A DNA stretch of 64,000 nt from Deltaproteobacteria bacterium (GTDB lineage Bacteria; Desulfobacterota; DSM-4660; Desulfatiglandales; HGW-15), in assembly GCA_016931115.1 (NCBI GenBank), contig JAFGFM010000144.1:68008-132007 (forward strand), read 5' to 3'. Both the position numbers and the translations under genes were made by a program. Under the pieces are notes generated by a model. The model worked only from the letters and a program-made list of their open reading frames with translations. It searched no databases and was not told where the DNA came from. Positions 5,300 through 42,827 of the stretch are shown piece after piece; positions within the stretch are counted from its first letter, which is position 1; the number at the start of each line of letters is the position of its first letter.

Positions 5300-5312
5300 T
5301 GATAAACCCCTT

Positions 5313-29800: not shown

Positions 29801-32800
29801 GGTCCTGGACTGTCTCTCCATCTGTAATGTATGAGCCGACAGCATCCATCAATGGAATCATGGTCGGCGCTATATCACTGGCATCAATATTGATATCACC
29901 AGCAGCTGTAACTTCCGAATCACTTATTACAGCGGAGGTATCATTTGCGATCACATTCCCCATGGCTGTTACCTGTACGGCAAATCCACCAGAACCTGAA
30001 ACCCCTATAGCCAGCGTGCGAATTATCGATGAATTCTCAGATGTCAGATCAAGGGTCGACCCTGTCTCAAGTGTTGTACCCTCTATCCTTGTTCCGACAG
30101 AATTGGTAATAACATTTGCTGCAAGGGCCACGCCAACTGCGCCGCCGCCAGTTGCCGACACGCCAATTGCAAGTGTATTGATTTCTGATGTATCTTTGGA
30201 TGAGATTGTCACAGCCCCTGCTGCATCAATAACTGAACCTGTCAAGGCATTGGCCATAAGATCAATCGATTGCCCGTTATATGCATCCTCCTTTGTATAT
30301 GCGAGTTCAATATTCCCTGATGCAGGGTCATCAACTATAACATAATAGGTCTCACCATCTGTAAGACCGCCTATAGCTGAACCTCCACTTGTACCATATA
30401 TAAGCGCATCACCCGTCTTAAAACCATGGTCAGGACCGACGCATATCGTATTATTATCAATACTTACATCATTGGCAGGATCAAAAACTTTCTTTTTGTC
30501 CGCAGTTGCCGTATCATCCAGAGTAAGCTCATGAACCAGCCCTGTACCGCTGCTTATACCTGCCTCGGTTGTGTTTGAGATGACGTTGGCAGATAATGAC
30601 AGCAATACTGAGGCTGCGCCCGATCCGGCAACGCCCACGGTCAACCCAAGAATATCCGAATTGTTTTCAGCTTCAATATTAAGTGTTGACCCGGTTACGA
30701 CTGTCGATCCTGCAATATTCGCCATAACAGTGTTGGCAACAACATTGGCAGCAATTAGCGCACCTACTGATACAGCCCCTGAACCTGCAACGCTAACACC
30801 AAGCGACCGGATCTGGCTGCTATCCATTGCTGTTATATCGATCGTATCCGACGCGGTGACATGTGAACCGCCTGTGATAATTGATTCAATCCTGTTGGTT
30901 ATCACATTCCCATAACCTGTTGCATTCACAGCAACAGCCCCTGAACCTGCAACCCCAACTGTAAGGCCGATAATGCCTGCTTTTGATAATGCATCAATAT
31001 CGATAAGGCCGCCTAATGATTCAACATCAGACTCGCTGATCTCTGCTGTAACTGTATTGGCAATAACATTTCCAACGAGTGCGGCATTTACTGCAACTGA
31101 ACCTGAGGCCGCTACGCTTACCATAACGGAAAGTATATTTGCATCAAGATCAATCGGAGTACCTTCAAGGGCCTTTGTTAGATCATCGGCCCTGTCTGCT
31201 GAGACTATCCAGTCAGGGATGAGGCTTGGGGCAATATCCTTTGCAGTAATTGTTATATCCCCTGCTGCTGTGACTATTGATCCTTCTGAAATGGTTGCGG
31301 AAACCGTATTTGCCACTGCATTTCCCATGGCCGTTACCTGAACCGCTACTGACCCAGAGCCAGAGACCCCTATGGCAAGTGTGCGTATTATTGCGGAAGA
31401 CTCAGACTCGATGCCAAGAGTTGAACCTGTATCAAGATCTGACCCGATAATTGAACTCTCTATGGTATTAACGATAACATTTGCACCAAGACCAATACCT
31501 ACTGCCGTGCTTCCGCTGCCCGAAACACCAAAGGCAAGGGAATCTATGGTTGAGCTATCCTTGGCCGAGATGTCTACTGCACCGCCAGCATCAATATCAG
31601 ACCGGTGATTTATGTTATTGATCAATTGATCACTTATAATCGCCTTTGTAGAGTTTGTAATTACGTTGGCTGAAAGGGAAACCAGCACCGCGGTAGAACC
31701 GGCAGCTGCCACTCCACCGGTAAAGGCCATTATATCGGAATCGGACAAAGATTTAAGTGCAAGACTGTCTCCACTTTTTACATGAGAACCAGCGATTTCT
31801 GATGTCACGCTGTTTGTAATCACATTTGCGCCGACAATTGCGCCTATGGCATTGCTTCCTGAGGCAGCTATGCTTAACCCCAGAGACCTGATGGATGAAT
31901 CATCTTTAGCACTCACAGATATATCGTCTGCAACCTCTACACTGGAATTTGAGATGATCCCTGCCCCTGTACTGTTTGTGATAACATTACCAAATCCGGT
32001 CCCCTGAACAGCCAGATCGCCTGATGCGCCTACGCCAACTGTAACAGCAAGAATGCCCGCCTTTGAATAGGCATCAAAGGAGAGATCAGACTCTGCGTTT
32101 ATCACTGTACCGGTATCATCTACTCCTGCCCTTACTGTTGAACCGCTGATCTCAGCCGCTATATCATTTGTGACTACATTACCCATGAGAGCCACCCCAA
32201 CAGCCTTTTGTCCGCTTCCTGCAACGCTGACATTGACCGCAAGGATGCTCGATTTAAGGTCTATTGGTGAGTCTTCCAGGGCAGCGTTCAGATCCTCCTG
32301 AACCCCTTCATCTATCATCCAGGTGGGTATTATAAACCCTGCCTCATCCTTTGCAGAGAGCAGCACATCCCCTTCTGCTGTAACTGTTGACCCATCCTTT
32401 ATTATGGCCCTGACACTATTGGCAACAGCGTTTCCGGATGCATTTATTGCCACCGCATTTTCACCTGAGCCTGAAACGCCTATACCCAGTGACCTGATTA
32501 TGGGGGTGGATTTGGCTGAGAGGGATACATTTCCCTCTGAATCGATTGTTGATCCTGATATCTCCGCAAGAACGTTGTTTGTAATTATATTAACAGAGCC
32601 TGCTGCACCCACACCGGTTTTACCGGCAGCTGCTATTGTAAAGGCAATAGTGTTTAGGCTGGATGTGTCTGTCGCCGTAAGGATCACATTTCCGCCGGAA
32701 TCAATTGATGCCCCGTCTATGTTGGCCCGTGTATCGGCTGTAAGCACAAATACCGCAAGGGAGCCTGCAATACCGTTTTGCTTTGAGACCCCGGCTGATA

Positions 32801-35800
32801 CCGCAACTGATGTAATATCCTCTTCTGAATCTGCATTTATGGTTACTGACTTATCTGCATTTACTGTTGCACCAGATTCAATATAGGCCTCTGTATCCTT
32901 AACAATAACACCTACATCAAGGGCTATGCCGACGCCTGTGCCACCAAAGGCAACAGCGAGACCTCCGGCGCCGTTGAGTATCCTTGTAAGGCTTGAGGCA
33001 TCAACTACAACAGACTGATTAAGCCCTGCAATTAATGCGGGATCAGTGTTTATCTTTACCCCTTCACCAACATAGGCATGGGTATTCTGTACAACTACAT
33101 CTACAACCGCAGATCCTCCAACGGCTGCCTTCCCTTCACTGCTGGTGCTTACTCCTCCGCCCGCTGCTATGGATGAGACACCAAAACCAAGGGAACCCAT
33201 ACCAGGTATTTCAAGATTAACCGGTGTTATCGAGGAATCGGAGTTGATTGATATTACCTCACTGGCATCCGCATGTGTATCCTCACTTAAGTATGCATCA
33301 GTATTAGAGACGATTATATTGGCTGCAACCGCAACTCCCACACCGGCCTTTTTGCCAACACCACCGCCGCCAGCTATATTCTGGTATGAGATATCATTTT
33401 CTGCATCTATATCTATATTACCTGTGGATTTGAGGGTGGCACCTGCACCTGTGGAGGCATCCGTATCCATGACCATGACATTGATACCGGCTGACCCTGC
33501 AACACCATTATCCTTGCCTCCGCCAATGGCCAGCGCCCATACTGTAAAATCATTTGTCCTATCTTCAGGTGTAACCGCCTGGATAGAGATATTGGCTGCC
33601 TCGATGTCTGCACCGGCACCGATAATTGCCTCATTAGATAAAATCCCGACATTGAGCCCTACTGCCGCTCCCACACCTGTTGTACTGTCAAAGGAGAGGG
33701 CAGCGCCTGTGACTTTAGTTGTAAGGTCTGTTTCAGATTCAGCAATTACCTCAAGTGAGCCACCAGCATTCACATGGATATCCTCTGCAATAGAGGTTTT
33801 ATTGTCCGATATTACCCAGTTTACTCCGATAGCCGCTGCAATACCCACGCTACTTGAACCGGTTCCGTTTTTTCCGTTCTTATCATTGGTTTTTTCCAGG
33901 GATTTGTCATTTGCATCAGAAAGGCTGTCATTTGCCTTTGGCAAAGTTTTTGTGCCGCCGGTTGCTGCATTGGCCTGGGCCTGGGCCTCGTCATCACTGC
34001 TCCTGGGTGCAGCCTCACCCTCTTTTGTCTCATCTTCGCTCTTGTTACCCTTTGCGCTGGCAGTAATATCCAGCATACTGATTTGATCTGTCAGGGCATC
34101 AATTTTTATGTAACCATCTGCAGAAATATCACGTTCTATTTTTGCGACTGTGGAATCAAGAATAATATTTAACCCCACTGCTGCACCAACCGCAGCCTTG
34201 TCACCGGCCACAGATGCGTCTGCTATTGTATGGGCTGTTCCTGTGTGGTTTGCCTCAATAGTTACATTGCCTGTAATATCTATCTGGCTGATATCATTGG
34301 CACCTAACCTGGCAGTCGTATAATCATTGGCAAAGGCTACAGCTACAGCAGGGCTCACTGCCGTACCGCCTGCAGCCCCTGCCTTGACCGTTGTAAACAC
34401 GGCATGCTCTGATTCTGCCTTTATGGTAAGGTCATTACCCCCGGTTATTTGTGAATTATCCTGTATATCCGCATTTATTACATTTACCGGAAGGACATTA
34501 AGCGCCACCGATGCACCTATGCCTACTTTACCGCCTGTGACCTTTGATGCTGCACTTGCTGAATCATTCTGTGAGCTTTCAGCTATTATAGAAATATTGC
34601 CTGTCCCGGCATCAACTGCCGCTAAAGATTCAATCACTGCCTCAGTATGGGTTGTAATAACATTCAGCGCCAGGGAGCCTGCAACACCTACATTTGAGGC
34701 ACCCGCACCAGAAACCGCATTTGCGACAAAGCTATGACTCTTTTCAATGAGCCTGTGATTACTGCCCGTGGCTCCTGTTGTAAGGTCTATTGTTTTTCCG
34801 ATCAGGGCATCCTCCGGGGTTAATGCAAGTTTTACTGCCACCGGATATACAATAGTAAATTTGTGATCAAAGAAGCTTATGTTTTCAACTGAAAATAGAA
34901 GGTCCTGCACTTCATCGGAATCAGGGTCAAGCAGTTTAATCCGGGTTGGATTATCTTCATCCACATCAACCTTGTATGTTGCCCCCTCTTTCAATCCCCC
35001 GATAGGTCCGCTGTTAAGCAGGTTCCCCTTGGAATAGACCACAAGGTCTCCATCCTTTAAAAAATGGTCAGCCCCCAGCTCTATCCAGTTATCTGTATAA
35101 TTTATAGACCCGCCTATTGTATTTATGTCTATACCCACCTTTGCCATTGCGTCCCTGAAGGTATTGAGTTCATTTACCCCGAGGTCATCAATGTCATAGG
35201 GGATAATATTGAAGCTTCTGGTATCATCCAAAACGGCATAATAGGTCTGGCCATCTACAAGCCCGCCAATGCTGGCATCCCCGCCGTTGTCATATACTAT
35301 TTTGTCCCCTGTCTGGATACCATGCTCTTCCCCAAGATTTATACTTTCCCTTGTCACAGAAACACTGGAAAGATCAATGGCCTTTTCATCCCCTGCCATA
35401 TCGGCCTTTACTACAAGACCGTTGGTATCTATATCAGCATCGGTTCCTACATAGGCCCTGTTTGCCACATCCGAATAATTTATTGCAATCGCTGCGCCTA
35501 TGCCAACCTTTGTATTGGCAGGATCAACAGCGCTTCCGTCTGCATCTGCTTTTGCATCCGTGTTATTTGAAGAGTTTAATGTAAGGGTGCCTCCTGATAC
35601 TACATGTCCATTTGCAGGGATAAATGCCTTTGATTCACTTAATGTGATATTTACCCCTATGGCGGCTGCAACACTTACAGTGCCATCAGAGGTTTCAGCC
35701 TTGGGTGTTTCAGCAGCATCTCCAGTACCTTTTTTACCTGTCTCCTGTGCCTTGTCATCAGCGAGCTTTCTCTGATCACCAACCTTCTTGTCAACATTTT

Positions 35801-38800
35801 CAGATGAACCGCTCCCTTCAGATTCACCCTCAGACCCTTTTGCACTTGCCTTGGCAGATGAGGAGCTTGTAGTAATGGTAAAGGCCTCAAAATTCATATC
35901 ACCGGCAGAATCTATCTCCCTGTCTGTAGTAGATATAGCACTATCAGTAACCACATTCAGACCCAGGGCTATACCTATAGCTGCACCACCACCAGAGGCT
36001 GCACCATCGGCCTTTGTCTCTGTTACTCCTTTGTGATTAGCCTTTGCGTTAAAGTCACCATCTATGTCCAGTTTATCTCCACTGCCCACGTAGGTTATTG
36101 TATCGTTATTGGCTACCGCTATACTGATAGCCCCACCTATCCCAACTCCACTCCCACCCTTGGCTTCACCACCGGCTGTTGAGGTCGTGACTGCCTTGGT
36201 ATTACTGTCCGCTGACAAACTTATATCATTTATCGTTCCGGTTATTATCGCGCTGTTTTCTATCTTCGCCGTTGAGGTGTTGTTAGATATATTTAAGGCT
36301 ACAGAGGCACCTATACCTAGGTTACCTCCTCCGCTTGCAGGGGCTGCTGATTCTACTGTAAGGCTCTGTATTCCTGTTCCGGCTGATGTAATATCAATCG
36401 CTGTACCAGCATTGGCATTAGCCTCTGTAGTGGCAAGCTTCACCCTGGTAGTCCCATCGGTAATCACATAATAGATCGTGCCATCAGTTAAACCGCCTAT
36501 AGCTGTTCCGTCACCCTTGTTGTATACAACCGCATCACCTGTCTGAAGGGCATGTTTCTCCCCCAGTTCAATCGTGTCTGAGGTAGCCACAACCTTTGTA
36601 CCTGCATCAAATCCTTTGCTTGCTACCGCATCAGCGCTGACAGCCTTCACCTTCTCACCGGTCATTACAGACCCTTCAGCGTTCGCTGTCGTAGTCTCAA
36701 GTCCAAGCTGTGTAATGGCAGTAGCTGCACCAATAGCCTCCACCTTAAATTGCTTCACGCTGGCTGTCTGGGTATCTGTCCAGATCGTCATTGTCTCTGA
36801 CGAGTCAAAGATAAGCTGATTTCCTATAAACTTTACATCCACTAATGCTGCATCACCTGCTTCAAGATGACCGGCATCTACCATGGCATCTTTTATCGCG
36901 GCCTTGATATCACTTAACCATGCCTTCTTGCACTCATCCGCTGTACCTAGGTACTCCTTTGCTTCAACTGTTACAAACACACGCTCGTTATCTGTCCCTA
37001 CACGTAAGGCAAAATTAAGCGCTTCGCTTTCATCATTAATTGGTGATTCAACCGCTGTTCCACCATCCCTCCTGTAAAATACTGGGCTCCCTGTCATGGT
37101 TACTGATGTTCCTGCACTTACAACCGGGTCAGCAGGGGTGATAGTATCCGTCATTACAAACTGCTGCTTTGCCTCGTCAAAGCTTGCTACCAGTTGACCC
37201 TTGTTGTTCCCGGCATTGTTGATCTTCTCTATAACCTCACGCACAGTTGTTGCACCATTCAGGACAACCACAAAGCTCTTCCCATTACGCAGGTTAAAAA
37301 CCAGATCTCCTGTGCCAGCACCTGCTGCTGTCAGGTTAAATTCCCCGGCTCCTTGCCCGATCTTTGTATCAAGTGTGATCCGATCCGTGTCACCTGCTGC
37401 CTCTACCTTCTTCTCAGGCTCTACAGAAGCTCCTTTGGCCGTGGCCAAAACTGTAGACTCAGTAGACCCTTCTGCAATGACCTTAACATCCCCGCCAGTA
37501 AGAGTTACTGTGCTACCTCCATTTATCAGCGCCTCGTTTCTGCTGTCAGCTATGTTCAGAGCCAATGACCCAGCTATACCTACCTTGCCTCCGCTCGCCC
37601 CTGATATCGCCTCTGCGCCAATTTTGCCTGTTGTATCACCTGATACAGATCTCTTCTTGGCCTCTATTGTCAGCCAGTCCGCATTTATCGTTGATCCTGT
37701 TCCTACATAGGCCTCATTTACTGCGCTAACAAGGTTGATAGCTACCGCTGCACCTATGCTTACCCCTCCAGATGCACTCGTTGCGCTTCCATCTGCCTTG
37801 GCTGTCGCATCAGTGTTATTGCTGGAACTCAAAGTAACCATGCCGTCAGAGGCTATTGTGCCGTTATCTGGGATATATGCCTGTGCCGTTGATTTAGCTA
37901 TGTTCACCCCTATCGCTGCCGCTACGCTCACGCCACCTTCTGATGTCTCAGCAGCAGGTGTCTCTGCAGATTCCCCTGTCCCCTTTGTACCTGTCTCACC
38001 TGCCTTCTTATCCGCAAGGCCCCTCTCTGCCCCTATCTTCTTGTCTACCCCCTTATCCTTTTCAGGATCAGCATCATCCTCTTCCTTTGCGCCTGATGCA
38101 CTGGCTTTAGCGCCTGCGCTGCTTGCACCCGCATTGTAGGCCCCAAACATCACGTCTCCACCGGCTGTTATTACCCTTTCAGTCGTAGACAGGCTTATAT
38201 CATTTACTACATTAAGCCCCAGCGCTACACCTATACCTGCGCTTGCCCCTCCTGCTGATCCGTCTGCAAAGGTGGTTGTGTTCCCTGTATGCTGTGCCTC
38301 TGCCTTAAGTGCTCCGGTTATACTTAACGGGCTGCCTTCTCCTATTACTGTAATTGCTTCATTGTTAACTACGCTTGTTGCTATGGCACCGCCTAAACCT
38401 ACGCCGCTTCCTCCTGTGGCCGCGCCCCCTGCCTTCGCTGTAGTCACTACAGTATTATCAGATGTGGCCTTCAGGGTTACATCATCCGCTCCGGTGAGAA
38501 CAACTGTGTCAGCTACCTTAGCCCTCGTGCTCGTATTGGCTATATTTAGCGCTACTGATGCACCTACGCCTACGCTCCCTGCTGTAGCACCCTCATTCGC
38601 CGGATTCGCGATAACTGTGTTTACTGTCGTGTTCTCTGCTGTTAAACTTACATCCCCTGCGCCAGTTATAACCACACTCGCACCACTCTCTATCTCCGCC
38701 CGGCTATTACCATCCAATATACCTAATGCCAATGACCCGGCTACTCCTACAGTACCCCCATTAGCGCCCGATATAGCCTCAGATGATATGGTGTTTGCGA

Positions 38801-41216
38801 GGATTGTTTCATCACCCTTTTCAGCCATCAATGCATTAATAGTGATACCGGCAGCACGAATCTCTCCTCCCCCACTCAGATATGCCTCATTACTTATATC
38901 TGCAATATTGATGGATACCCCTGCACCGACACCAACAGCAGCCGAACCTACCGTGCTCCCATCAGCCTTTGCTGAAGAATCTGAATTATTAAGGGATGTT
39001 AAATTTAAAAGACCGCTGGTTATAATACTCTGAGAGCTGTCAATATATGCCCTTGTATCACCTGAAAGGGTGGAAACAGCCACTGCACCCGCGATTGTAA
39101 CCGCACCATCACTCGTTTCTGCCTTATTATCGCTCAGGGCCTTTTCTGTTTTAGTTGATCCGCCTGATTCACTCGCCCCGCCTGATGTTGATTTTGCCGC
39201 TGTTGTTATGGTGTCAAGCTTTTTGGCCTGTATGGAAATACTCCCGGCAGTTTCCACAGATGCGCTTTCACTCAGGTACGCCTCAGTATCCCCTGTTATG
39301 GTTGTTACCGCTACGCTGCCTCCGGCAGCTGTTGAACCTCCTGCTGTACCGTCCGCCTCTGTCTTTACTGTCCTTGTGTTCAGCGCATTGATATTGATTG
39401 CACCACCCGCATTAAATGCGGATGAGCCTGTTACCCTGACAGCCGCAGACCCGTTAACAATAGAGGTTGCAACCGCTGCATCGGCAGATACTGACCCGCC
39501 CATTGATGCAAGAGATTGCGCTGTTGTCTGGGTTGTTGATGTTGCGCTGATACTGGTATTTCCTGTAGTAACTATCCTTGATGAGCCTGTTATGGATATG
39601 ATAGCCTCTGAAGTTACATTGATAAGCGCTACATCCACAGGGAGCTTCAGCTCAAGCGACGCATCTGCATCAACACCTGCTTCTGCAATTATATTTATTT
39701 CGCCTGCATTAAGAGTGGCATTATTAATGGTGACATAGGCCCTTGCATCTCCAAATACACTGTTATCAACAGCAGTTGACAAAAGGTTTATAGCGCCTGA
39801 CCCTGTGTCTATGGAGTTGTTTATATTGATTATCTCTGCCCCTATTGTCAGATTAACACCTGTAAGGAGCAGATTATCAGATATGGTAATGGTATCTTTT
39901 CCATCACCACCATTTATTGTTATATTTTCAATATTGGATATGCTGTTTAAAATAATGCCATAGGAAGTACCGTTTATGGTAATCCCGGAATCTGATATTC
40001 CTATGGTATCAGCGCCTGTTGTGCCCTCTATAATAAGGGTATCATTTCCCTCAAGACCGTTTATCAGGTAATTATCCGATGTTAAGGTGCCTGTAACAAA
40101 ACCATCGTATACTGTGAGTGTCTCCAGATTAAAGGTGATTGTATCTGCACCTGTTGTACCATTCACATTGATATCCGCCAGCAGGTGATCATACCCTGAC
40201 ATATCAATAGCACTGAAAAGGGAGGTGGACTCAATAATGCCCTCAGTGTATTCAAGATCCCAGTCCCCGCCATACCCCATGTGGCCGCTTTCATCTGTTG
40301 AAGCTGCCACATCAGCGCCAGTCTGCCTGCTTAACTCTGTGATAAAGCCAATGCCCAGTTCATCATCTGCAATATTGCACCCATAAAGCAGAATATCCCC
40401 GCCATCATTAAGACTTTCCTGCCAGACCCTCAGGCTTTCCGAATGCTCCTCCAGACTGTTCCTGTCAACAATACTGTTTCCAATACGCATCATACCTGAT
40501 GCACCATGTGAAATAATATGAATGGAGTCTATATCTTTATACTGGCTCAGTATCTCTGTAATCTGTTCAATCCCGTCCCTGCCAGGATCCAGGATTATTA
40601 CCTCATAAGAAGAATCCCTGACATCATCACCCTTTATCCCATTCTGAATGCCCCCATCTCCTGACAGGCTTTTCTCTTGAAGAATATCCTGATTTTCCGT
40701 ACCACCAGGGCTATCCTCAAATTTCCTGTTAATAAGTGTTTCATATTCAGGAACTGAGGGATCAATAATTACAAGCTGGCGTCCACTATCCTCTGAAAGC
40801 AGGTAAGATAACTGAACAGATATATTTTCCTTTGAAAAAGTATAAGCTTCGGAATCGTTTTTTATTGCTGAGGTATCGCCTTCGGACAGGGTGTCCGCAT
40901 GATTTGTCCCTCTACCATCTTTCCAGTCAGCAGATGTTACCGCCTCTGGTGGTGTTATACCAGCCTTTACATCATCAGTGTTTGATTCATTATTCACTCT
41001 TTCGCTGGAAAGTGTGTCCACTTGAGCAGCAGAGATGGCGCCTGTAAGAAGTATCTCATGCTCCTGCAGATCCTGTGCAGCAATAATCGGATCAGCAGAA
41101 AGCAGAATACGCTTTTCAAGGGTTTCAAAAAGCATCCTGCGGCGTTCGGGTTCTTTTTTTGATATTCTACCTGTAAAGGTCTTAAGCCTGCCTGTCAGTT
41201 TTTTCAGGTGTGACAT
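11865..41216 (-). CDS. Giant (9,783 aa) repetitive extracellular/adhesin-like protein: LEPR-XLL-like N-terminus, DUF4347-like domain, beta-solenoid (filamentous-adhesin/LktA-like) repeats, novel repeated modules, C-terminal RTX repeats
   Basis: A single uninterrupted 29,352-nt ORF with an AGAGG RBS. Acidic and G/S/T/A/N/D-rich, and I spotted only four Cys. N-terminal RRRMLFETLEKRILLSADP. DUF4347-like block ...VIIDPSVPEY...IHIISHGASG...LLYGCN...GADVAASTD..GYGGDWDLEY. Hundreds of ...G.GAS.A.N...N.T.A.I... solenoid turns. GGxGxD-type repeats near the C-terminus. Confidence 0.92.
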   Translation of the reverse strand: MSHLKKLTGRLKTFTGRISKKEPERRRMLFETLEKRILLSADPIIAAQDLQEHEILLTGAISAAQVDTLSSERVNNESNTDDVKAGITPPEAVTSADWKDGRGTNHADTLSEGDTSAIKNDSEAYTFSKENISVQLSYLLSEDSGRQLVIIDPSVPEYETLINRKFEDSPGGTENQDILQEKSLSGDGGIQNGIKGDDVRDSSYEVIILDPGRDGIEQITEILSQYKDIDSIHIISHGASGMMRIGNSIVDRNSLEEHSESLRVWQESLNDGGDILLYGCNIADDELGIGFITELSRQTGADVAASTDESGHMGYGGDWDLEYTEGIIESTSLFSAIDMSGYDHLLADINVNGTTGADTITFNLETLTVYDGFVTGTLTSDNYLINGLEGNDTLIIEGTTGADTIGISDSGITINGTSYGIILNSISNIENITINGGDGKDTITISDNLLLTGVNLTIGAEIININNSIDTGSGAINLLSTAVDNSVFGDARAYVTINNATLNAGEINIIAEAGVDADASLELKLPVDVALINVTSEAIISITGSSRIVTTGNTSISATSTTQTTAQSLASMGGSVSADAAVATSIVNGSAAVRVTGSSAFNAGGAININALNTRTVKTEADGTAGGSTAAGGSVAVTTITGDTEAYLSESASVETAGSISIQAKKLDTITTAAKSTSGGASESGGSTKTEKALSDNKAETSDGAVTIAGAVAVSTLSGDTRAYIDSSQSIITSGLLNLTSLNNSDSSAKADGSTVGSAAVGVGAGVSINIADISNEAYLSGGGEIRAAGITINALMAEKGDETILANTISSEAISGANGGTVGVAGSLALGILDGNSRAEIESGASVVITGAGDVSLTAENTTVNTVIANPANEGATAGSVGVGASVALNIANTSTRAKVADTVVLTGADDVTLKATSDNTVVTTAKAGGAATGGSGVGLGGAIATSVVNNEAITVIGEGSPLSITGALKAEAQHTGNTTTFADGSAGGASAGIGVALGLNVVNDISLSTTERVITAGGDVMFGAYNAGASSAGAKASASGAKEEDDADPEKDKGVDKKIGAERGLADKKAGETGTKGTGESAETPAAETSEGGVSVAAAIGVNIAKSTAQAYIPDNGTIASDGMVTLSSSNNTDATAKADGSATSASGGVSIGAAVAINLVSAVNEAYVGTGSTINADWLTIEAKKRSVSGDTTGKIGAEAISGASGGKVGIAGSLALNIADSRNEALINGGSTVTLTGGDVKVIAEGSTESTVLATAKGASVEPEKKVEAAGDTDRITLDTKIGQGAGEFNLTAAGAGTGDLVFNLRNGKSFVVVLNGATTVREVIEKINNAGNNKGQLVASFDEAKQQFVMTDTITPADPVVSAGTSVTMTGSPVFYRRDGGTAVESPINDESEALNFALRVGTDNERVFVTVEAKEYLGTADECKKAWLSDIKAAIKDAMVDAGHLEAGDAALVDVKFIGNQLIFDSSETMTIWTDTQTASVKQFKVEAIGAATAITQLGLETTTANAEGSVMTGEKVKAVSADAVASKGFDAGTKVVATSDTIELGEKHALQTGDAVVYNKGDGTAIGGLTDGTIYYVITDGTTRVKLATTEANANAGTAIDITSAGTGIQSLTVESAAPASGGGNLGIGASVALNISNNTSTAKIENSAIITGTINDISLSADSNTKAVTTSTAGGEAKGGSGVGIGGAISIAVANNDTITYVGSGDKLDIDGDFNAKANHKGVTETKADGAASGGGAAIGIALGLNVVTDSAISTTDREIDSAGDMNFEAFTITTSSSSAKASAKGSEGESEGSGSSENVDKKVGDQRKLADDKAQETGKKGTGDAAETPKAETSDGTVSVAAAIGVNITLSESKAFIPANGHVVSGGTLTLNSSNNTDAKADADGSAVDPANTKVGIGAAIAINYSDVANRAYVGTDADIDTNGLVVKADMAGDEKAIDLSSVSVTRESINLGEEHGIQTGDKIVYDNGGDASIGGLVDGQTYYAVLDDTRSFNIIPYDIDDLGVNELNTFRDAMAKVGIDINTIGGSINYTDNWIELGADHFLKDGDLVVYSKGNLLNSGPIGGLKEGATYKVDVDEDNPTRIKLLDPDSDEVQDLLFSVENISFFDHKFTIVYPVAVKLALTPEDALIGKTIDLTTGATGSNHRLIEKSHSFVANAVSGAGASNVGVAGSLALNVITTHTEAVIESLAAVDAGTGNISIIAESSQNDSASAASKVTGGKVGIGASVALNVLPVNVINADIQDNSQITGGNDLTIKAESEHAVFTTVKAGAAGGTAVSPAVAVAFANDYTTARLGANDISQIDITGNVTIEANHTGTAHTIADASVAGDKAAVGAAVGLNIILDSTVAKIERDISADGYIKIDALTDQISMLDITASAKGNKSEDETKEGEAAPRSSDDEAQAQANAATGGTKTLPKANDSLSDANDKSLEKTNDKNGKNGTGSSSVGIAAAIGVNWVISDNKTSIAEDIHVNAGGSLEVIAESETDLTTKVTGAALSFDSTTGVGAAVGLNVGILSNEAIIGAGADIEAANISIQAVTPEDRTNDFTVWALAIGGGKDNGVAGSAGINVMVMDTDASTGAGATLKSTGNIDIDAENDISYQNIAGGGGVGKKAGVGVAVAANIIVSNTDAYLSEDTHADASEVISINSDSSITPVNLEIPGMGSLGFGVSSIAAGGGVSTSSEGKAAVGGSAVVDVVVQNTHAYVGEGVKINTDPALIAGLNQSVVVDASSLTRILNGAGGLAVAFGGTGVGIALDVGVIVKDTEAYIESGATVNADKSVTINADSEEDITSVAVSAGVSKQNGIAGSLAVFVLTADTRANIDGASIDSGGNVILTATDTSSLNTIAFTIAAAGKTGVGAAGSVNIITNNVLAEISGSTIDSEGNVSLSAKSTPIIRSLGIGVSGSGENAVAINASGNAVANSVRAIIKDGSTVTAEGDVLLSAKDEAGFIIPTWMIDEGVQEDLNAALEDSPIDLKSSILAVNVSVAGSGQKAVGVALMGNVVTNDIAAEISGSTVRAGVDDTGTVINAESDLSFDAYSKAGILAVTVGVGASGDLAVQGTGFGNVITNSTGAGIISNSSVEVADDISVSAKDDSSIRSLGLSIAASGSNAIGAIVGANVITNSVTSEIAGSHVKSGDSLALKSLSDSDIMAFTGGVAAAGSTAVLVSLSANVITNSTKAIISDQLINNINHRSDIDAGGAVDISAKDSSTIDSLAFGVSGSGSTAVGIGLGANVIVNTIESSIIGSDLDTGSTLGIESESSAIIRTLAIGVSGSGSVAVQVTAMGNAVANTVSATISEGSIVTAAGDITITAKDIAPSLIPDWIVSADRADDLTKALEGTPIDLDANILSVMVSVAASGSVAVNAALVGNVIANTVTAEISESDVESLGGLIDIDALSKAGIIGLTVGVAGSGAVAVNATGYGNVITNRIESIITGGSHVTASDTIDITAMDSSQIRSLGVSVAGSGAVSVGALIAANVVANTVMANIAGSTVVTGSTLNIEAENNSDILGLTVGVAGSGAASVLLSLSANVISNTTEAGISSGTGLVHELTLDDTATADKKKVFDPANDVSIDNNTICVGPDHGFKTGDALIYGTSGGSAIGGLTDGETYYVIVDDPASGNIELAYTKEDAYNGQSIDLMANALTGSVIDAAGAVTISSKDTSEINTLAIGVSATGGGAVGVALAANVITNSVGTRIEGTTLETGSTLDLTSENSSIIRTLAIGVSGSGGFAVQVTAMGNVIANDTSAVISDSEVTAAGDINIDASDIAPTMIPLMDAVGSYITDGETVQDLKDGLSGTPFDPTANIISLMVSVAGTGGVAVNGAFTGNVISNNIEALIHDSRVVSDTGLIVLDTESRAGILALTIGVAGSGAVAVNATGFGNVIANSVSSRITGGSEVITGSTAGDITLDATDTSLIRSAAISVAGTGGIAAGALIGANVISNSVITEISSSKVESGAELELTSENKSSILGLSVGVAASGAGAGILSLTGNVITNTTRAAITGEETSRSDIDTTGAINLTAKDISEINTLAIGVAGSGGGAVGAALAANVIVNSAETEINNSDVDTDSTLLMDSSNSSIIRTLAIGVSGSGGFAVQVSAMGNVIANDTSSLISGSTVTANGDITIKAEEKSPSMIPLMDAIGSFINDAKTKNSLQDALSDTPFSLSANILSMLINVAGSGAVAVSGAFTGNVITNSITTEITDSTVTSEAGGISETSVSSAGIVSISVGVGGSGIAAVSVVAFGNTITNRVESIVSDTSVLDAAGEIKVSASDKSTIRSVGLSIAASGGLAASIIGAVNFITNTVTAEISGSTITDGTNLNITALSDSNIYSFTGGIAASGAVAAQLSLSGNVIINTVASRIKDSNLDLTGAITLLSTDSSTIDSISVGVAASGAAAAGAALSENHIQNSVGAGIEGSHVAVNGNIEAFAKSAAVIRSLAAGLSGAGGVSGAASVTLNQIRNNISAFATGSTLISTNGEIIIKALDSADKASNYMSGMTMPNNVSSSLNSRLSGTDHASSANILSFAGSIGGAGLAAGAAAVSDNDIQNTVSAAVTDSDLTSTASDITVFAESESKIVSMSLGIGAAGGIALSASETNNTIKNSVDANISGECAVSANDDITVKATDESEIDSIALSLAGAIGAAIGGVSVTNNIDNDVSSRVYGTSGSKKNSINKADDLNIYAKGTYRIKGAGLGANVGIVAAGASDVESEIAGSVNAYIGDYTDIGQDTDHLNDIYINAISDADIMSKTTAISAGIGGGSENYAESEIKPEVNAYIADNTVIEATGNIEVNAEATSKSYATTTGINAGLAAVGASKSVSKISPTIIAYAGGDITAQSIQVKGTHKLPSSGYSTYARSTGSAGALVGVDATTGNVEAKAAVKSYILDGAQFNITGTTVINADNKTLQYSEANSNAGGLIALGFNKATVLSGTVTHAYIEGNVNITGGSLDISATGVDNNKAYVKAGSGGLVAGSASNGKTINNSTTWVDIATGTGTKIDVGGNFKVKAEHNTLFRADSDSITAALVGGSGANVTNNVTSDVNIVFGTGVDVNAGAIDVDANNIITKISDGYNVVAGAGGLVGGPAASSITTIVDRTKIIVQDGADIEVDGDRHHPGSMNFDSKNMLYATDKVKLDSGGAIAIALAKSVIINNVNTNEIIIGDANLTGVGSIGISASSIANVQTQANSNTYGLAGAAQGESYSSVHADNKVTVGNNAEIDALGDISLNAGVGNSFYVKANTDLWNKTALPIYTDPKAHGEIVQSNLVDIKSGAYIGSAADVHLNADKGYYYAHGAGVGTDLYREVLAAIANFFGSIFGIKPVSLKIVKDSYKEAASADVRVDGSVRSGKNNIQELIISNTDEQYAPIMMTDQGSGVPLLTFAANGVDDDTITRSNGSWVTDGFEAGQYIRVYGSNGNDGVYKINSVGDTVLTLADNIIIDRVSDSADLFAATSSTGTRPIVMNGSPNLTFNRTNSTITRAAGDWIEDGFVEGQYINVDGSLNNDGAYRILSITDTVITVTGSKLANETTGSADIVAQAIKPVSSAANITGNPVLDYIPRRAVIERSSGSFIDDGFLSGKTIIIDGVNYAVVQVTAGSLYLAETYDITEHSDIAENITSTIGQTTVDMAFVPEQAEADAEITWSGGNWADQGIAAGDLIRISGADNAANNTGTGFEISSVSSSVIQLVDGSGIIDDAVSSGPITIQKDISVLSGVDLTFAAEVRDGDDNLVSRATITRDTGSWVTAGLRAGQNITISDAGANNGNYSIYSVSDSVITLIESSSIGAATDDNGSLFTLNLTISDNVSFTAQREHEYAKVINQSGSWSSDYRQNQQVTFSGADISGNNGSYTILSVSGNTMYVNGPLTLDMVDNGGQTTATVSASATANITWSIDNARIERSSGSWVTDGFAADQKIVIKGSDNNDGDYAIESVTATVIRLKDGYELTHDETNTDTDTLIQTPAAKVVEVTYGKGILFTRGVGGSQDRIELTDSSDWSDLGFATGQYIRITGSASGNNGIYKIELATGDTLILATGYDTFDADETYIASASRNITGIAPKSIEQVVSLTEGTSLTLTVADNRITRLTGDWAAEGFQANQYIVIRGSSEGNDGTYRIQEISGYSLILDGNHRISQNETYAGMKIYATPIKPGTISDLIYRTPGVDMPLEVKADIAEAIRAEIDKLELDKQNYGGDGKALAGIQAQIDQLKYQAGELGLLSPDGAVVGNMEVTFIETPEIIARSGDIIISGDTLSGSGKLDAPGDTRITIENHSPYYLRIKEDLTVLDLGGNVTFNGARVYSNSDIQARNRSGRLAQFSSIITDKNSADPLIEIRNTYNPPPTGLLASAPPPDIEILGSNITNIEGTVSIANKEGSIFIKDDDSTVPEQRTSIKAKTVEIKAGRDVVIATDTQHVGGDPAAVWDDLATASDSTQKFNPDGTEYDGGSNWTGSNTAHRAQNGAIIAGNNVFITARVLNINGPIQSGNADRTLTLQDTSSVTLKDKTTTTLDQRISTLEAEGKSDWITLTDSDIEVFYNHETNRIIIDDVSVDGGLIKLTGHILATDTDGLLKVVDGFGKIKIDNQSSYVIDVQSIKTGEDEELILTGADLRVTGRDMLVTGADWITLKDNGASGADTVTRQTGSFILDGFREGQQVRITGSQEGNNGVYTVERVEEKALTLTAGATLTTEFRDNSSFEISGNWITLSDTGADDTISRSAGSWITDGFYVGQSIRILDSANGNDGIYVVKSVGDLNLVLEGGDFSSEVSTSTTLEVVGNWITFNHTADSDTVTRNAGSWIEEGYRDGQTIVITGSANNNGEYKVVRVTEKGLELDSTAFLVNEVNISEGLTVKGMGNGIEGKVIITDTAYDVDSDPNVYKPLTTTYTRIGNSVQVTDNDTQNVVSGSSAIIDGRNATYQPVSGQRYYWVTGYSETSVLTEQWTSSSFWGINYANGQSRSYYNYVDPTPVDLEPESKFVEKENDGTTNPGYAYEFNSLGDPVVYTREWVTTSGWWIFSTKTYHLERITSVGRTNYDYHSVKADYPVKIEFMGYETGVVEITSDTDINLTGVISNLSGPTAIVSENGSINQLEELALIRAENITLEAANGTIGNQVRATIRRNSGKWTEEGYDAGDIIRFTDGLGENNNKDFVIASITESTITLENGSGLVSITDNDGFTLYNVTDDTTTEYNTDPLTLTAVEEHYKSVRTDVAGGLLTASADGLVAIEEIEGKVTVDTVISANDDVVMASEGGIFANDNSSLISGDNIHLTSLTGALGTSSLNLRINTNNDNNYDDDDKFDAITAHAFNDIYLHEISDDLRVVAIESLDGDVNITIDDGNLVDVNTLERRDVRTEAELADLWDEMNLIDNDGKETQDAYKGLKTREYNTYWGYRTGSTIYIDSISQVSGTSITFDADHGFTTGDALLYRVMEGDTITGLNDKQTYYAIVVGSHTIRLADSLSHANADQSINISTPLAEGRFSLTNMLAYDTGFKVTMTDAQREAYKDQLGWDDARIDLEELKRTQEFHELHNRFSVLGDTFNPDWQYDTANPGYEPLFTPAQDVDSANDTINIGVNLLATGTGVVYNANGGSKIRYMEEGEWKELAEDKIYYIIKADSGNPSIIRLADSLENANLGIYLDIDASGATGTDHSISDVDALAIGSSWTEEQLKYSLGAGWLKETTDTETRIESSNIIGKNVVINASGSIGNFLNEQVILISNGDLESGGTLIDLADSEKAALAAAERADLISIKSDTNTVSFGTLHELESGAAVIFGSGGNMGVGGIQGVTDGVTYYARVIDDFTIQLFDSAAHATGEGDTGLINITRSEARIVQREDIDFSSGGTVTEISIYTSEGDMGGEGTLLNLTDYENDLINSTDPEDITESNSALNTIRFGSAHDLTSGTPVNFGPFGTFTISNISGVTDGEIYYARVIDEFTIKLFDTEENALGSNDTGVINITRSEIRIIQQQDTGAGIDIKAGEFIFIGSESDVNIISIQAGPDDNPNGEIRLKTKGGIYNSSAGAGTNIKGGDLFLESGREGIGLDGAPVTIDLASGAKLTSRANNGIFIHEVNGDMNVDTLFSRKRIDLIADMSILDAFDDDYLNIRTEVLNLFAGDSIGSKTGDTINYLDINLYPEGILNATAGGDIYLYETDGDMLTGSIVSSNGDVTLRAVASILDAENDLQADITGNSINLEAMFGGIGISGNDLDINSAFSGEGSLISTSSLNTYLTETDGDLSIYQVFTGPGYTAFIGSGASILNARLDEEDNILSGSAWLFADGNIGSGTRAIKTTIGHLEGRSVHGSIWLINQGHLIIGGVTENDGIRAEGRIEITAHSPMTVTERMEAGDIILTTADNSDADHLTVQAGVNVISTAGSIELRAGDNLIIEDGAIVHAADSVELYVDFGNADAGVGGVLEMRGMVTGNLVTITGNSDNDIIPIMYTASPTVINTLGGNDTISIGSNADPDSNNSGNIRNILELIDIDGGAGIDTLHLDITGETEAVTGTLTEDTITGFNMGLNGSVQYTAIENLNLNTGSGDDAVNVQATASGTVTNIFTGAGNDTVNISSDAPANLGNLDGINGTINIDTESGSNTITISDAGSETADINVIITENRVSGMSPADINYAATNGTFEGGIKIIFGRGADVISVVDIQSDTLTTISGNEGDDVITIEETVISGRLEVHGDDGDDTIDASAVPAGAELVLAGGLGNDNLFGGDGNDVIFGDEATIDRDINYNITGVVSVQPDSGGNEVIVGNDGDDILVGGFGDDDITGNNGNDYIVGDNGTVEITDNIVTLMESRDTNDTTTGDDTIDSGDGDNYVIAGGGKDTVTGGSGDDYVIGDHGTLVFTDVGDLTEIATRLNELGGDDILDLGDGANIAIAGQGNDTITAGIGDDAIIGDSGVIGIDENGIITGLESARLTQGGDDEITTGDGTNYIIAGAGNDAVTTGGGEDYITGDNGTIEITNGIVTLMESKDTNDTTTGDDIIDAGDGDNYVIAGGGKDTVTGGSGEDYVTGDHGTMVFTDVGDLTEIATRLDNLGGDDNIDLGNGNNIAIGGQGNDTITAGEGSDAIIGDSGVIGIDENGVITRLESTSLTQGGNDNITAGDGTNYIIAGAGNDSVTTGAGKDYITGDNGNIEITDNIVTLMESKDTNDTTTGDDIIDAGDGDNIAIAGQGNDTITAGIGNDAIIGDSGVIEIDENGVITRLESTSPTQGGDDEITTGDGTSYIIAGAGDDTVTTGAGKDYITGDNGTIEITDGIVTLMESTDTNDTTTGDDTIDSGDGNNYVIAGGGNDTVTGGSGDDHVTGDNGLMIFTDVGDLTEIDTRLDNLGGDDTVNLGDGANIAIAGQGNDTITAGIGRDIIIGDLGIVTFEDGVVYQVISVPAPSGGQEVLSGGNGNDILLGGEGKDTISGGNGTDILIGDNGFIQFSNGIPVTIETRHTVNGEADIFDGGEGTDILFGGEGKDIINKKAPEDVLISKYGRVILEEYRVNRVYPPQYNMAEGALSKAGRLTSPGENILHPSDRSLFMQIESKTIASGTVITGPEEAFGMGSYYSHLSDGNNQGQGKATIKTSILSDGAIEKRYPNGLIEVIKQDKTIVRNAPDGREVMIFPDGTITITLPNGTKTIKNPDGSSVTTYPDGRIIKVLPDGTIINSSAENEGTDLRLNKLLLSARRDTDGLSNMDNDLRTGLKAKERSDNLDQKIDITAMVAGLTGWGALSGKKSETGKIIDKSGFINLDRKNRLRKFVKWTNGELDKKSGNELSYLKKKELN
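12700..15150 (-). repeat. RTX-type (GGxGxD nonapeptide-like) calcium-binding repeat region of the giant protein
   Basis: Examples: GGLGNDNLFGGDGNDVIFGDE, GNDGDDILVGGFGDDDITGNNGNDYIVGDNG, GGNGNDILLGGEGKDTISGGNGTDILIGDNG. Confidence 0.85.
12890..14816 (-). repeat. Tandem DNA repeat: four units of 525/525/351/~525 nt within the RTX region
   Basis: The marker (c/t)tccatcaggg (reverse complement of ...TLMES) sits at 13395, 13746, 14271 and 14796. Units are roughly 80-90% identical by eye. The 351-nt unit lacks a 174-nt (58-aa) in-frame block. Confidence 0.85.
20640..21325 (-). repeat. Three further copies of the GSWxxDGF module
   Basis: VTRQTGSFILDGFREGQQVRITGSQEGNNGVYTVERV; ISRSAGSWITDGFYVGQSIRILDSANGNDGIYVVKSV; VTRNAGSWIEEGYRDGQTIVITGSANNNGEYKVVRV. 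A 13th copy lies at ~19690-19860. Confidence 0.8.
22745..25045 (-). repeat. Nine tandem ~55-85-aa 'GSWxxDGFxxGQxIxIxGSxxNDGxYxIxSV' modules in the giant protein
   Basis: Examples: ITRSNGSWVTDGFEAGQYIRVYGSNGNDGVYKINSVGDTVLTLAD; ITRAAGDWIEDGFVEGQYINVDGSLNNDGAYRILSITDTVITV; IERSSGSWVTDGFAADQKIVIKGSDNNDGDYAIESVTATVIRL. Confidence 0.8.
27450..32900 (-). repeat. Five tandem super-repeats (356-455 aa each) inside the giant gene
   Basis: The marker I(I/V)R(T/S)LA(I/A)G(V/L)SG(S/A)G recurs at nt ~27843, 28912, 30004, 31369 and 32479, giving spacings of ~1068, 1092, 1365 and 1110 nt. Each is followed by a non-solenoid loop ending ANILS. Confidence 0.8.
40255..40785 (-). other. DUF4347-like domain of the giant protein
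   Basis: QLVIIDPSVPEYETL ... EVIILDPGRDGIEQITEIL ... SIHIISHGASGMMRIG ... ILLYGCNIA ... GADVAASTDESGHMGYGGDWDLEY. Confidence 0.65.
41088..41135 (-). other. LEPR-XLL-like N-terminal motif of the giant protein (aa 28-43: MLFETLEKRILLSADP)
   Basis: A basic run (KKEPERRR) is followed by MLFETLEKRILLSADP, a Pro->Lys variant of the LEPRxLLSA signature that starts many giant repetitive proteins. Confidence 0.65.
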
Positions 41217-41279: not shown

Positions 41280-42827
41280 CTACTTAAGCCACTCATTGAC
41301 AACCGTGATATCTTCCTGTGCAAGCAGGCCGACCGCCTTTTTGAGCCTGAAGCTGTAGATAATGTACTCATACAGCGATTTGGTATACTCCTGCTTGGTC
41401 TGGTACAGGTCCCTTTCTGCATCTGTTACAGCAAGGCTGGGGAACATGCCGGACTTGAATCCCTCTTTCTTGGCCGTGAGTGTAATCTGGTTACTGATCA
41501 TTGCCTCTTTCAGGGCATTGATATTCTCTATTGAGCTTTTAATACCCAAGAACGCTGCCTTGGATTCCCTGGTTGCGGATCTGATCTCTCCTTCAAGATC
41601 CTCTTCAGCGGCCTTTAAAAGAAGCCTTGCCTCCCTCACCTTTGATGAGGTGGAGAAGCCGTTAAAAATAGGGATCTTAAGTTCAACTGCCCCTTCCCAT
41701 CTCTCAAGATCGCTCCCGCCGCCATATAATGACCCATCTTCTATATCCCTGTTCATCCTGCCAACAAGATTAAGAGTCGGCAGATGGCCTGAGTTCTGTA
41801 TTGAGACCTCTTTTCCTGCCACAACCACTCTCTTCTCCTTTACAAGCACATCAATATTCTGCCTTCTTGCTGAAGCGACCCATTCATCAACATTATCAGG
41901 TATCGGGGTTATCAACGGGATTGTGTCCCATGTGTATGCCACTGTTTCTCCGGGGTTCAGGCTGTTGAAGCCCTTTATATCTATATCACCTGTCCCAGGA
42001 GATTGTTTTTCATCAGTAACGGCAGCCTTTGTGCCGCCATTAATATTTCTTGCGCCAGGTTCAGAGAGGTAACTATCAATCTTGATATCGGGCAATATTA
42101 TGGTTTTAAGATCATCCATCCGCCTGCCAGTTATCTCAGCCAGCCCCTCAAGGGCATCTTCAAGGATATGGTCAGCCCTTACACGCTTTGTCGTAATAAC
42201 GGCAAGCCGGGCCTTTGCGTCATGGAAATCGGTAACAGGGGCAAGACCGTTTTCGTATCTTTCCTTTGCAAGATTATAATGCATATTAACAGCCGCCTCT
42301 TCCGATCTGCTGAATTGAAGGATATCCTTTGCCTCAAGCGCTGCAAGGTATGCCTCTGTAACCCGGAGAATGAGTGTCTGTTTTGCTGTCTCAAGCTCCA
42401 GATCAGCCTGCCTGACCTCCTCCTTTGCCTGTGAAAGCCTGACAATAGATGAGTATTTAAAAAGAGGCTGGCTCAATACCAGATCAAACCCCTTACCCGG
42501 ATATTTTGCAGTGCTGTCGCCATATACCACAACCTCATTGTCAAATATCTCATGCCTTGAACGTTTGTAAAAGGCATCAAAACTGACAACAGGCAGTATC
42601 TCAGCGAATGCCTGATTATATATTTCAGGCGATGCGTTGTGCCGGTGTATCTCCTTCTGAAAGGTTGCATCATTCTCAAGGGCAACCTGATAGACCTCAA
42701 GCAGATCAGAAGAATATGCAGACAGAGAGCAGATGAACAGTAACAGAGAGCAAAAAGAGAGCCTTATAAATCCTCCTTTAATGCCCCCTGAAAAACAGTA
42801 AAAATATCTTGAGATAATTGAATACAT
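41280..42827 (-). CDS. TolC-family outer-membrane channel protein
   Basis: Signal peptide (…LLLFICSLSAYSSDL) and GGGAGG RBS. Two-fold repeated TolC pattern (LLEVYQVALENDATFQ..., ...AERDLYQTKQEYTKSLYEYI...) with a ~70-aa insertion between the halves. First gene of the operon. Confidence 0.87.
   Translation of the reverse strand: MYSIISRYFYCFSGGIKGGFIRLSFCSLLLFICSLSAYSSDLLEVYQVALENDATFQKEIHRHNASPEIYNQAFAEILPVVSFDAFYKRSRHEIFDNEVVVYGDSTAKYPGKGFDLVLSQPLFKYSSIVRLSQAKEEVRQADLELETAKQTLILRVTEAYLAALEAKDILQFSRSEEAAVNMHYNLAKERYENGLAPVTDFHDAKARLAVITTKRVRADHILEDALEGLAEITGRRMDDLKTIILPDIKIDSYLSEPGARNINGGTKAAVTDEKQSPGTGDIDIKGFNSLNPGETVAYTWDTIPLITPIPDNVDEWVASARRQNIDVLVKEKRVVVAGKEVSIQNSGHLPTLNLVGRMNRDIEDGSLYGGGSDLERWEGAVELKIPIFNGFSTSSKVREARLLLKAAEEDLEGEIRSATRESKAAFLGIKSSIENINALKEAMISNQITLTAKKEGFKSGMFPSLAVTDAERDLYQTKQEYTKSLYEYIIYSFRLKKAVGLLAQEDITVVNEWLK

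Follow-up and report, generated by a model that had tools for sequence, protein, structure and literature searches.

The peptidase-containing ATP-binding cassette (ABC) transporters (PCATs), which together with HlyD and TolC export colicin V and double-glycine bacteriocins, recognise and cleave an N-terminal non-Sec leader by means of the exporter's own protease domain. A second SecA dedicated to special cargos is likewise a known theme, and for proteins of 5,000–40,000 residues the one way through two membranes known to us is type 1 secretion, which is driven by an ABC transporter and relies on a C-terminal signal. We describe an operon in a 64-kb stretch of DNA (64,000 nucleotides of contig JAFGFM010000144.1 of a Deltaproteobacteria bacterium; this whole stretch is the window) which specifies a giant protein beginning with a motif that databases call LEPR-XLL, together with a TolC-family channel, HlyD-type adaptors and a truncated SecA paralog. 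The LEPR-XLL tag probably addresses giant proteins to a secretion route not described before. We propose, with moderate confidence, that it is a non-Sec N-terminal leader of cargos, many of them giant and RTX- or adhesin-like, for a TolC-dependent, envelope-spanning exporter whose invariable inner-membrane part is a fusion of an RRE (the recognition element of ribosomally synthesised and post-translationally modified peptides, RiPPs), an M50 metalloprotease and an HlyD-type adaptor. An export leader had been suggested in a first-pass annotation of this DNA, and the idea is supported by comparative genomics and by fold: linkage in both directions, covariation of leader and cassette, an RRE fold, invariant M50 motifs and the lack of an ABC partner.

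That annotation had also described the beginning of the giant protein as a LEPR-XLL-like segment preceded by a basic stretch and followed by a DUF4347-like domain, with no classical Sec h-region or AxA site. The description proved accurate and so did the coordinates, but the gene lies on the minus strand: 41088-41390 contains many stops when translated in the plus direction, and the reverse strand encodes the start of the giant. The features of this gene that concern the leader are:

11865..41216 (-), giant cargo gene, 9,783 aa, opening with MSHLKKLTGRLKTFTGRISKKEPERRRMLFETLEKRILLSADPIIAA (from the list of open reading frames, ORFs)
41145..41216 (-), basic n-region of the leader, residues 1-24, MSHLKKLTGRLKTFTGRISKKEPE, with 8 K/R (translation)
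41088..41144 (-), LEPR-XLL core of the leader, residues 25-43, RRRMLFETLEKRILLSADP, class A (NF012209 and PF07595 matches)
40179..40775 (-), DUF4347 domain, residues 148-346, behind a low-complexity linker (PF14252, E 4.8e-51)

An AAGAGG Shine-Dalgarno sequence stands 5' of the ATG, there are only 12 in-frame codons between it and the preceding stop, and homologues share the MSHLKK beginning. The motif thus begins at residue 25 of 9,783. It was recognised by the NCBIfam model NF012209 (LEPR-XLL) at residues 29-50 (E 7.6e-8; 31.7 bits where 17 suffice), and by Pfam PF07595 (Planc_extracel) at residues 25-43 with 24.1 bits for a 500-aa query, slightly below the threshold of 25.5; a 4,900-aa query gave 20.6 bits, again short of 25.5, in an unchanged motif register. 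Direct reading of residues 1-60 revealed neither an unbroken hydrophobic h-region nor an AxA site: the n-region is basic, as in a Sec signal peptide, and the segment ILLSADPIIAA is broken by D42. In its strict form the motif occurs once in the window. Since it was found only three times in 9,602 ORF segments of 82 related loci, and two of the three are true leaders, its occurrence is far from chance. The only Pfam domains in the giant are DUF4347, RTX and Tcp10_C-like repeats.

Class A leaders have the logo RR(K)LxFExLE(P)RxLLSAD(P). The lysine which the first-pass annotation regarded as a P to K variant is present, also in close relatives, but the column is variable anyway (P 31%, Q 13% and E 12% among 91 class A leaders). 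With NF012209, scores of 22–35.6 bits were obtained for five further leaders of this class. A sister leader, class B, ALE(P)Rx(L/M)FDGAA (LExRxMFDGAA), is found in the cargos of all five of the type-2 systems described below; as these five leaders gave 16.2–16.7 bits or no match, under the cutoff of 17, class B is a sister motif outside the NF012209 model. The DUF4347 family comprises 13,718 representative proteins, and of the best, diverse representatives 120/150 have a class A or class B leader within their first 200 residues. Positional analysis of these leaders (91 class A and 28 class B) gave a median motif start at residue 33 for class A, and a mean net charge of about +5 for the pre-motif region across 119 family members. 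The leader stands before unrelated cargo domains (DUF4347, Ig-like, LamG, calcium-binding) in proteins of about 100 to more than 16,000 aa, and despite these differences in domains and size its position near the N-terminus, after a basic stretch, is fixed. In the giants of Alisedimentitalea (locus L087, 6475-6627 (-)) and Azospirillum brasilense Sp7 (L098, ~6130-6256 (+)) the start was called after or inside the leader by the NCBI Prokaryotic Genome Annotation Pipeline (PGAP); the in-frame sequence 5' of those starts encodes a basic stretch and, in Alisedimentitalea, the entire LEPR motif as well.

The giant is the second gene of a minus-strand operon with the order TolC, giant, DUF3467, GAF-HlyD, RRE-M50-HlyD, SecA-like and small HlyD. 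Its adaptors and channel thus amount to three HlyD-type proteins and one TolC. The first-pass claim that a PqqD-like/M50/HlyD fusion and a SecA-like protein are encoded in it was verified by profile matches, and the closest homologues belong to Desulfatiglans and other Desulfobacterota. The other genes are:

41280..42827 (-), TolC-family outer-membrane channel, 63 nt upstream of the giant (TIGR01844, 240.7 bits vs cutoff 225; PF02321)
11469..11792 (-), DUF3467 protein, 107 aa (PF11950, E 2.6e-21)
9501..11369 (-), GAF-HlyD, with a cytoplasmic GAF-like N-domain, one transmembrane segment (~residues 355-373) and a periplasmic adaptor (profile matches, hydropathy)
7313..9457 (-), RRE(PqqD-like)-M50 metalloprotease-HlyD fusion, 714 aa (NF041824, PF02163, HlyD_D23)
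5313..7316 (-), truncated SecA paralog, 667 aa (SecA_DEAD, E 3.7e-102; SecA_PP_bind; P-loop_SecA)
4559..5359 (-), small HlyD/RND-type periplasmic adaptor, 266 aa, with a signal-anchor (TIGR01730, 119.7 bits vs cutoff 94.9)

Scanning one genome per species for this cassette yielded 80 loci, and counts were made over 82 related loci. They are distributed among Desulfobacterota, Alpha-, Beta- and Gammaproteobacteria (including Vibrio, Mesorhizobium, Bradyrhizobium, Neptuniibacter and Kistimonas), Omnitrophota and Rokubacteria. The order GAF-HlyD, M50-HlyD, SecA-like, small HlyD is preserved in 77/82, the remainder being interrupted by contig ends; GAF-HlyD is present in 77/82 and the small HlyD in 66/82, the SecA-like gene adjoins M50-HlyD in 77/82, and DUF3467 lies directly upstream, between cargo and cassette, in 38/82. 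A same-strand giant ORF abuts the cassette in 46 loci, its start lying beyond the 10-kb flank.

Wherever the N-terminus of a large gene next to a cassette could be read, the leader was there, 10–70 residues from the start (19/19). The type-1 cases (those with GAF-HlyD, SecA-like and DUF3467) include, besides the window, the genome loci L013, L057, L067 and L056 (Omnitrophota) and nine complete plasmids, namely those of Methylosinus C49, Alisedimentitalea, Pseudosulfitobacter, Pontibrevibacter, Sinorhizobium chiapasense, Mesorhizobium ciceri, Thalassospira marina, Rhizobium WSM1274 and Rhizobium johnstonii; three of the type-1 plasmid cargos bear the PGAP label 'LEPR-XLL domain-containing protein'. 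A plasmid search with a DUF4347 N-terminus uncovered a second type of cassette, ordered giant, TolC, small HlyD, HlyD of ~460 aa and RRE-M50-HlyD of ~700-730 aa, without SecA-like, GAF or DUF3467 genes. The five examples of type 2 are from Burkholderia anthina, A. brasilense Sp7, Variovorax paradoxus (with a cargo of more than 16,000 aa), Niveispirillum and the Escherichia coli plasmid pKL53-L. Leader and cassette covary: class A (LExRxLLSAD) accompanies type 1 in 14/14 systems, window included, and class B accompanies type 2 in 5/5 (exact probability 1/11,628 by hand calculation).

The type-2 fusion resides on 54 plasmids, including 18 of E. coli and 8 of Citrobacter, and among the plasmid accessions with a leader-type DUF4347 match nearly all from E. 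coli and all from Citrobacter also carry type-2 M50-HlyD. On pKL53-L, which is IncF-type (L105/L106, NZ_CP030920.1 109718-129511), a 4,473-aa class B cargo is followed by TolC, two HlyD proteins and RRE-M50-HlyD; this module adjoins a sil/cus metal-resistance cluster, and it recurs on plasmids of E. coli (18), Citrobacter (8) and Hafnia (one). No cassette was present within 20 kb of three leaderless DUF4347 proteins (Phaeobacter, Gloeothece, Halotia). DUF4347 itself was considered as the cassette-linked element and rejected, since leaderless DUF4347 proteins are without a cassette and leader-bearing LamG, Ig-like and calcium-binding cargos have one.

The relationship was also approached from the leader, by scanning metagenome contigs with a DNA pattern for FExLEPRxLLSAD, which gave at least 120 loci totalling 778 kb. 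All 121 motif matches listed lie near an ORF start, nearly all of them behind a basic stretch, in listed proteins of ~100 aa to more than 4,600 aa. Cassette-like genes occur in 32 of the at least 120 loci. M50-HlyD, SecA-like, GAF-HlyD or DUF3467 was found in 12/47 of the listed loci having 3 kb or more upstream of the leader, and in 6/17 of those having 6 kb or more. Such counts are lower bounds, because in the commonest layout a very long cargo gene separates the leader from the cassette downstream, which is then out of sight from the leader end. M50-HlyD alone is in 10 listed loci, about one per 78 kb, an enrichment which we estimate at ~50-fold on the assumption of one copy per few-megabase genome. 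Several closed leader ORFs extend only ~100-500 aa past the motif (L126, L132, L158, L163 and others), and one contig (L125) has two leader genes; one cassette may therefore serve several cargos.

Co-occurrence of the motif with PqqD-M50-HlyD, which the first-pass annotation had put forward beforehand as a test, is therefore strongly positive both from cassette to leader (19/19) and from leader to cassette (12/47). The companion expectation, co-occurrence with a SecA-like gene, holds for type 1 (14/14) but not for type 2, with its five systems lacking such a gene. As type-2 cassettes lack the SecA-like gene, it is the M50 fusion that is the constant partner of the leader, the SecA-like protein being not universal.

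The fusion protein combines the candidate receptor and the candidate protease, in the following segments:

9143..9457 (-), RRE/PqqD-like domain, fusion residues 1-105 (PF05402, AlphaFold2, Foldseek)
8816..8830 (-), HExxH zinc motif HEFSH (H210, E211, H214) of the M50 domain (invariant in alignment A1)

PF05402 (PqqD) matched fusion residues 37-101 weakly (15.7 bits vs gathering 23.4, E 0.02), although over model positions 2-67 of 67, and it matched 12/15 fusion orthologues, with a best E of 1.7e-5. The top PDB profile match of this region was PqqD (3g2b, E 0.11). An AlphaFold2 model of residues 1-125 (mean predicted local distance difference test score, pLDDT, 80) possesses strands at 24-31, 34-41 and 46-50 followed by three helices (beta3-alpha3). 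In Foldseek it matched TbiB1 and lasso B1 proteins solved with leader peptides (5v1v, 5v1u, 6jx3; target TM-score 0.68-0.72) and the RRE regions of LynD, CteB and MibB (4v1u, 5wgg, 5ehk), and PGAP names the orthologues 'PqqD family peptide modification chaperone'. According to this model the N-terminal domain of the fusion has a genuine RRE fold, and it would be the leader receptor. BLAST alignments between type-1 and type-2 fusions start only past the RRE region, which makes the RRE the most diverged part of the protein, in parallel with the change in leader class.

The alignment of fusion proteins, A1, shows no variation at H210, E211, H214, N304, P307 and D312, and the type-2 fusions retain HExxH and NPxxxxD too, HExxH there being HEFGH or HELGH. 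The M50 model PF02163 gave 22.4 bits against a cutoff of 27.2 for the window protein and matched 15/15 orthologues. The daptide protease model NF041824 covers residues 20-407, RRE included, with 151.1 bits vs an equivalog cutoff of 300 (E 4.7e-44), and the YydH/LiaK model (NF058609) gave 30.8 bits vs 225. The fusion, with more than 6,700 homologues, is thus a relative of the RiPP leader peptidases (daptide protease, YydH/LiaK) and not an equivalog member. From its conserved catalytic residues and from these nearest named relatives we infer that the M50 domain cuts the leader.

The SecA-like protein retains the DEAD motor, the preprotein cross-linking domain (PPXD) and NBD2, with intact ATPase motifs. 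It matches SecA models at E 1e-178 but falls below every SecA/SecA2 equivalog cutoff (595 bits vs 814 for PRK12904), and its match to PRK09200 stops at model position 603/789, the C-terminal third being missing. PGAP calls its orthologues (L084, L088, L089, L095) variously 'prepilin peptidase', 'DEAD/DEAH box helicase', 'hypothetical protein' and 'preprotein translocase subunit SecA'. DUF3467 has 13 invariant residues and no sequence relative in the PDB; its single-sequence AlphaFold2 model is poor (pLDDT 49) and unfit for a fold search. DUF3467 may be a cytoplasmic chaperone or adaptor for the SecA paralog, and a SecB-like chaperone role would be speculation.

No ABC transporter was detected by NCBIfam and Pfam profile searches in the operon or elsewhere in the 64-kb window, nor is an ABC exporter linked to any of ~100 cassette loci. 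ABC-ATPase-like ORFs appear in only 2/82 loci, both small and 6-8 kb off. In Phyllobacterium sp. 628 (L102, 13743-22049) a divergent M50-HlyD and one HlyD come after a 1,412-aa 'HrpK domain' protein with no clear LEPR motif, an ambiguous case; a classical type 1 ABC/HlyD pair lies 3 kb away.

The system has elements in common with several known ones. It resembles the PCATs in that leader recognition and cleavage, as proposed here, are coupled to export via an adaptor and TolC; it differs in having neither an ABC transporter nor a C39 peptidase, the recogniser being an RRE and the protease an M50 domain fused to an adaptor, and while PCAT cargos are peptides, leader-bearing cargos reach more than 16,000 aa. 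From the RiPP systems it has the RRE fold of TbiB1 and the lasso B1 proteins, and the best named relatives of its M50 domain are the RRE-M50 daptide protease and YydH/LiaK. The fusion, however, is far under both equivalog cutoffs (151 vs 300; 30.8 vs 225), is joined to HlyD and encoded with TolC, and the operon is devoid of RiPP modification enzymes, its presumptive substrates being giant proteins. TolC, HlyD adaptors, RTX repeats near the cargo C-terminus and a giant repetitive cargo are shared with type 1 secretion (HlyA, LapA, SiiE), but the ABC exporter that defines such systems is missing, the adaptor is represented by three paralogs rather than one, the conserved signal is N-terminal, and a SecA paralog and an M50 protease are involved. 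SecA and SecA2 are approached in the DEAD motor, PPXD and NBD2. The C-terminal third, which in SecA comprises the wing domain, the two-helix finger and the zinc tail, is missing from the window paralog, and the paralog shares its operon with adaptors and TolC instead of SecY2 or Asp proteins. Lastly, PF07595 describes essentially the same N-terminal motif (RRLxxExLExRxLLA) but as planctomycete-specific and without a cognate machine, whereas here the motif is cassette-linked and occurs in a Desulfobacterota-type genome, Proteobacteria, Omnitrophota and on E. coli plasmids.

Combining these observations, the leader core would be caught in the cytoplasm by the RRE domain, and the cargo would then be threaded, presumably N-terminus first, through a conduit which the three HlyD paralogs and TolC, all present as genes, are predicted to form. 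The leader would be removed or clipped at the M50 active site. In type 1 the truncated SecA paralog would provide an ATP-driven push, perhaps with DUF3467 as chaperone/adaptor, so that the two would act as motor and adaptor.

The other end of the giant has the following features:

12912..13004 (-), best-scoring RTX calcium-binding repeat stretch (one of 5), near the C-terminus (PF00353, E 8.4e-44)
11868..12047 (-), C-terminal tail (..MVAGLTGWGALSGKK..RLRKFVKW..), kept in Desulfobacterota and Gammaproteobacteria relatives (alignment A2)

The tail pattern, A-G-[LF]-x-G-W-G...basic...R-R-x-x-x-W with two near-invariant Trp, was derived from the giant ends of the window, L002 and L009-L049 (A2). 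Alphaproteobacterial and type-2 cargos have other tails, e.g. ..NNGLLKRLGSLFKK. The GW...RRxxW tail was rejected as a universal signal, being absent from alphaproteobacterial type-1 and all type-2 cargos, in which the N-terminal leader is always present. A protein search with A2 returned 4 fragments only, probably because it was swamped by RTX words. The C-terminus may nevertheless contribute to export of the giant.

Other explanations of the leader can be constructed from the same genes. It might be an atypical signal read by the PPXD clamp of the SecA paralog, with RRE-M50-HlyD acting in quality control or regulated release. The paralog has kept its preprotein cross-linking domain and its ATPase motifs, the basic n-region of the leader resembles that of a Sec signal, and the SecA-like gene adjoins M50-HlyD in 77/82 loci; but five type-2 systems share the LE-R core without any SecA-like gene, the leader has no hydrophobic h-region, the paralog is without the last third of SecA, and the sole partner common to both leader classes is the RRE-M50-HlyD fusion. 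We judge this explanation distinctly improbable. Somewhat better placed, though still unlikely, is a LapA-like arrangement in which the leader is a retention device or tether bound to the RRE, the giant exits C-terminus first by a type-1-like route, and M50 cleavage, possibly under GAF control, releases it later. The absence of a linked ABC exporter from all of the ~100 cassette loci argues against it, as do the variation of C-terminal tails by clade beside a universal N-terminal leader, the leader-bearing proteins of only ~100-500 aa and the lack of GAF in type 2; it would account for the RTX repeats near the C-terminus of the giant, for the conserved tail with its two near-invariant Trp, for a giant, repeat-rich architecture like that of type 1 adhesins, and for the GAF sensor domain fused to one adaptor. 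The motif is short (~19 residues), so that one might also think of a conserved structural cap or of similarity at the level of annotation, without any role in targeting and found near the cassette because adhesin and exporter genes share operons, the real signal being elsewhere. Its fixed N-terminal position after a basic stretch, before unrelated domains in proteins of very different size, the covariation of motif subclass with cassette type, and the lack of a cassette near motif-less DUF4347 proteins make that very improbable indeed.

The reading we prefer, of LEPR-XLL as the leader of an RRE-M50-HlyD-based exporter, has its own difficulties. The type-2 cassettes contain no ATPase of any kind that could energise export. 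RTX repeats and a clade-specific C-terminal tail, both found in the giant, are hallmarks of C-first type 1 secretion, and hydropathy alone leaves the membrane side of the RRE domain unfixed. Most leader-positive cases were found cassette-first, only the DUF4347-first and motif-first samples being independent. On a plasmid of Qingshengfaniella, a class B leader gene lacks a cassette within 20 kb, and the rest of the replicon yielded none either. Conversely, in Desulfuromonas acetoxidans (L001, 8149-14875) a complete four-gene cassette stands beside rpoD/dnaG with no adjacent giant or DUF3467, so its cargo must be encoded elsewhere. Planctomycetes, furthermore, possess dozens of sister-motif proteins per genome (PMC8567305).

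Our judgement is evenly balanced on a wider claim, namely that LEPR-XLL (class A) and its class B sister mark the cargos of a widespread, unrecognised class of TolC-dependent secretion system without an ABC, resistance-nodulation-division (RND) or major facilitator superfamily (MFS) transporter in the inner membrane. Its centre would be the RRE-M50 protease-adaptor fusion, joined by two other adaptors, and one subtype would draw its drive from a truncated SecA paralog partnered by DUF3467. The machine would consist of a peptide-recognition domain borrowed from RiPP systems, an intramembrane protease, three adaptors, TolC and sometimes a second SecA.

The motif itself is not new. The first-pass statement that it has no assigned function is not wholly right: the related Pfam motif PF07595, 'Planctomycete extracellular', was proposed as an export signal in 2004. 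The tag has been in the databases since that year, and NCBI uses it merely as a name. What appears to be new is its assignment to a specific, unusual secretion apparatus; in the library searched, no paper was found that links the motif to this machinery or describes the system. If the assignment is correct, this route, which is found even on plasmids of E. coli, Citrobacter and Hafnia, would export many of the largest proteins of bacteria, among them some that are said to 'lack known signals'. LEPR-XLL, PF07595, DUF3467 and thousands of genes named only 'HlyD family' or 'PqqD family' would then have a function, and the secretome of the route could be predicted from sequence alone. Culturable test models would be E. 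coli with IncF-type plasmids, A. brasilense Sp7 and Cupriavidus metallidurans CH34.

SapC-family genes are found beside or inside some type-1 cassettes (L087 6807-7604; L088 22260-23081). A 2026 preprint reports that sapC and tolC flank the giants Cag_663/665 of the Chlorochromatium epibiont, that extra secA and hlyD genes are present as well, and that these giants lack known signals. They and their sapC/tolC/secA/hlyD genes may belong to the same system. In the window, the gene upstream of TolC (43347-47432 (-)) encodes a protein of 1,361 aa that has a FecR domain, a classical Sec signal peptide and a (V)EPP repeat rich in proline and glutamate, and past it lie SLT transglycosylase, Skp-like and TPR genes.

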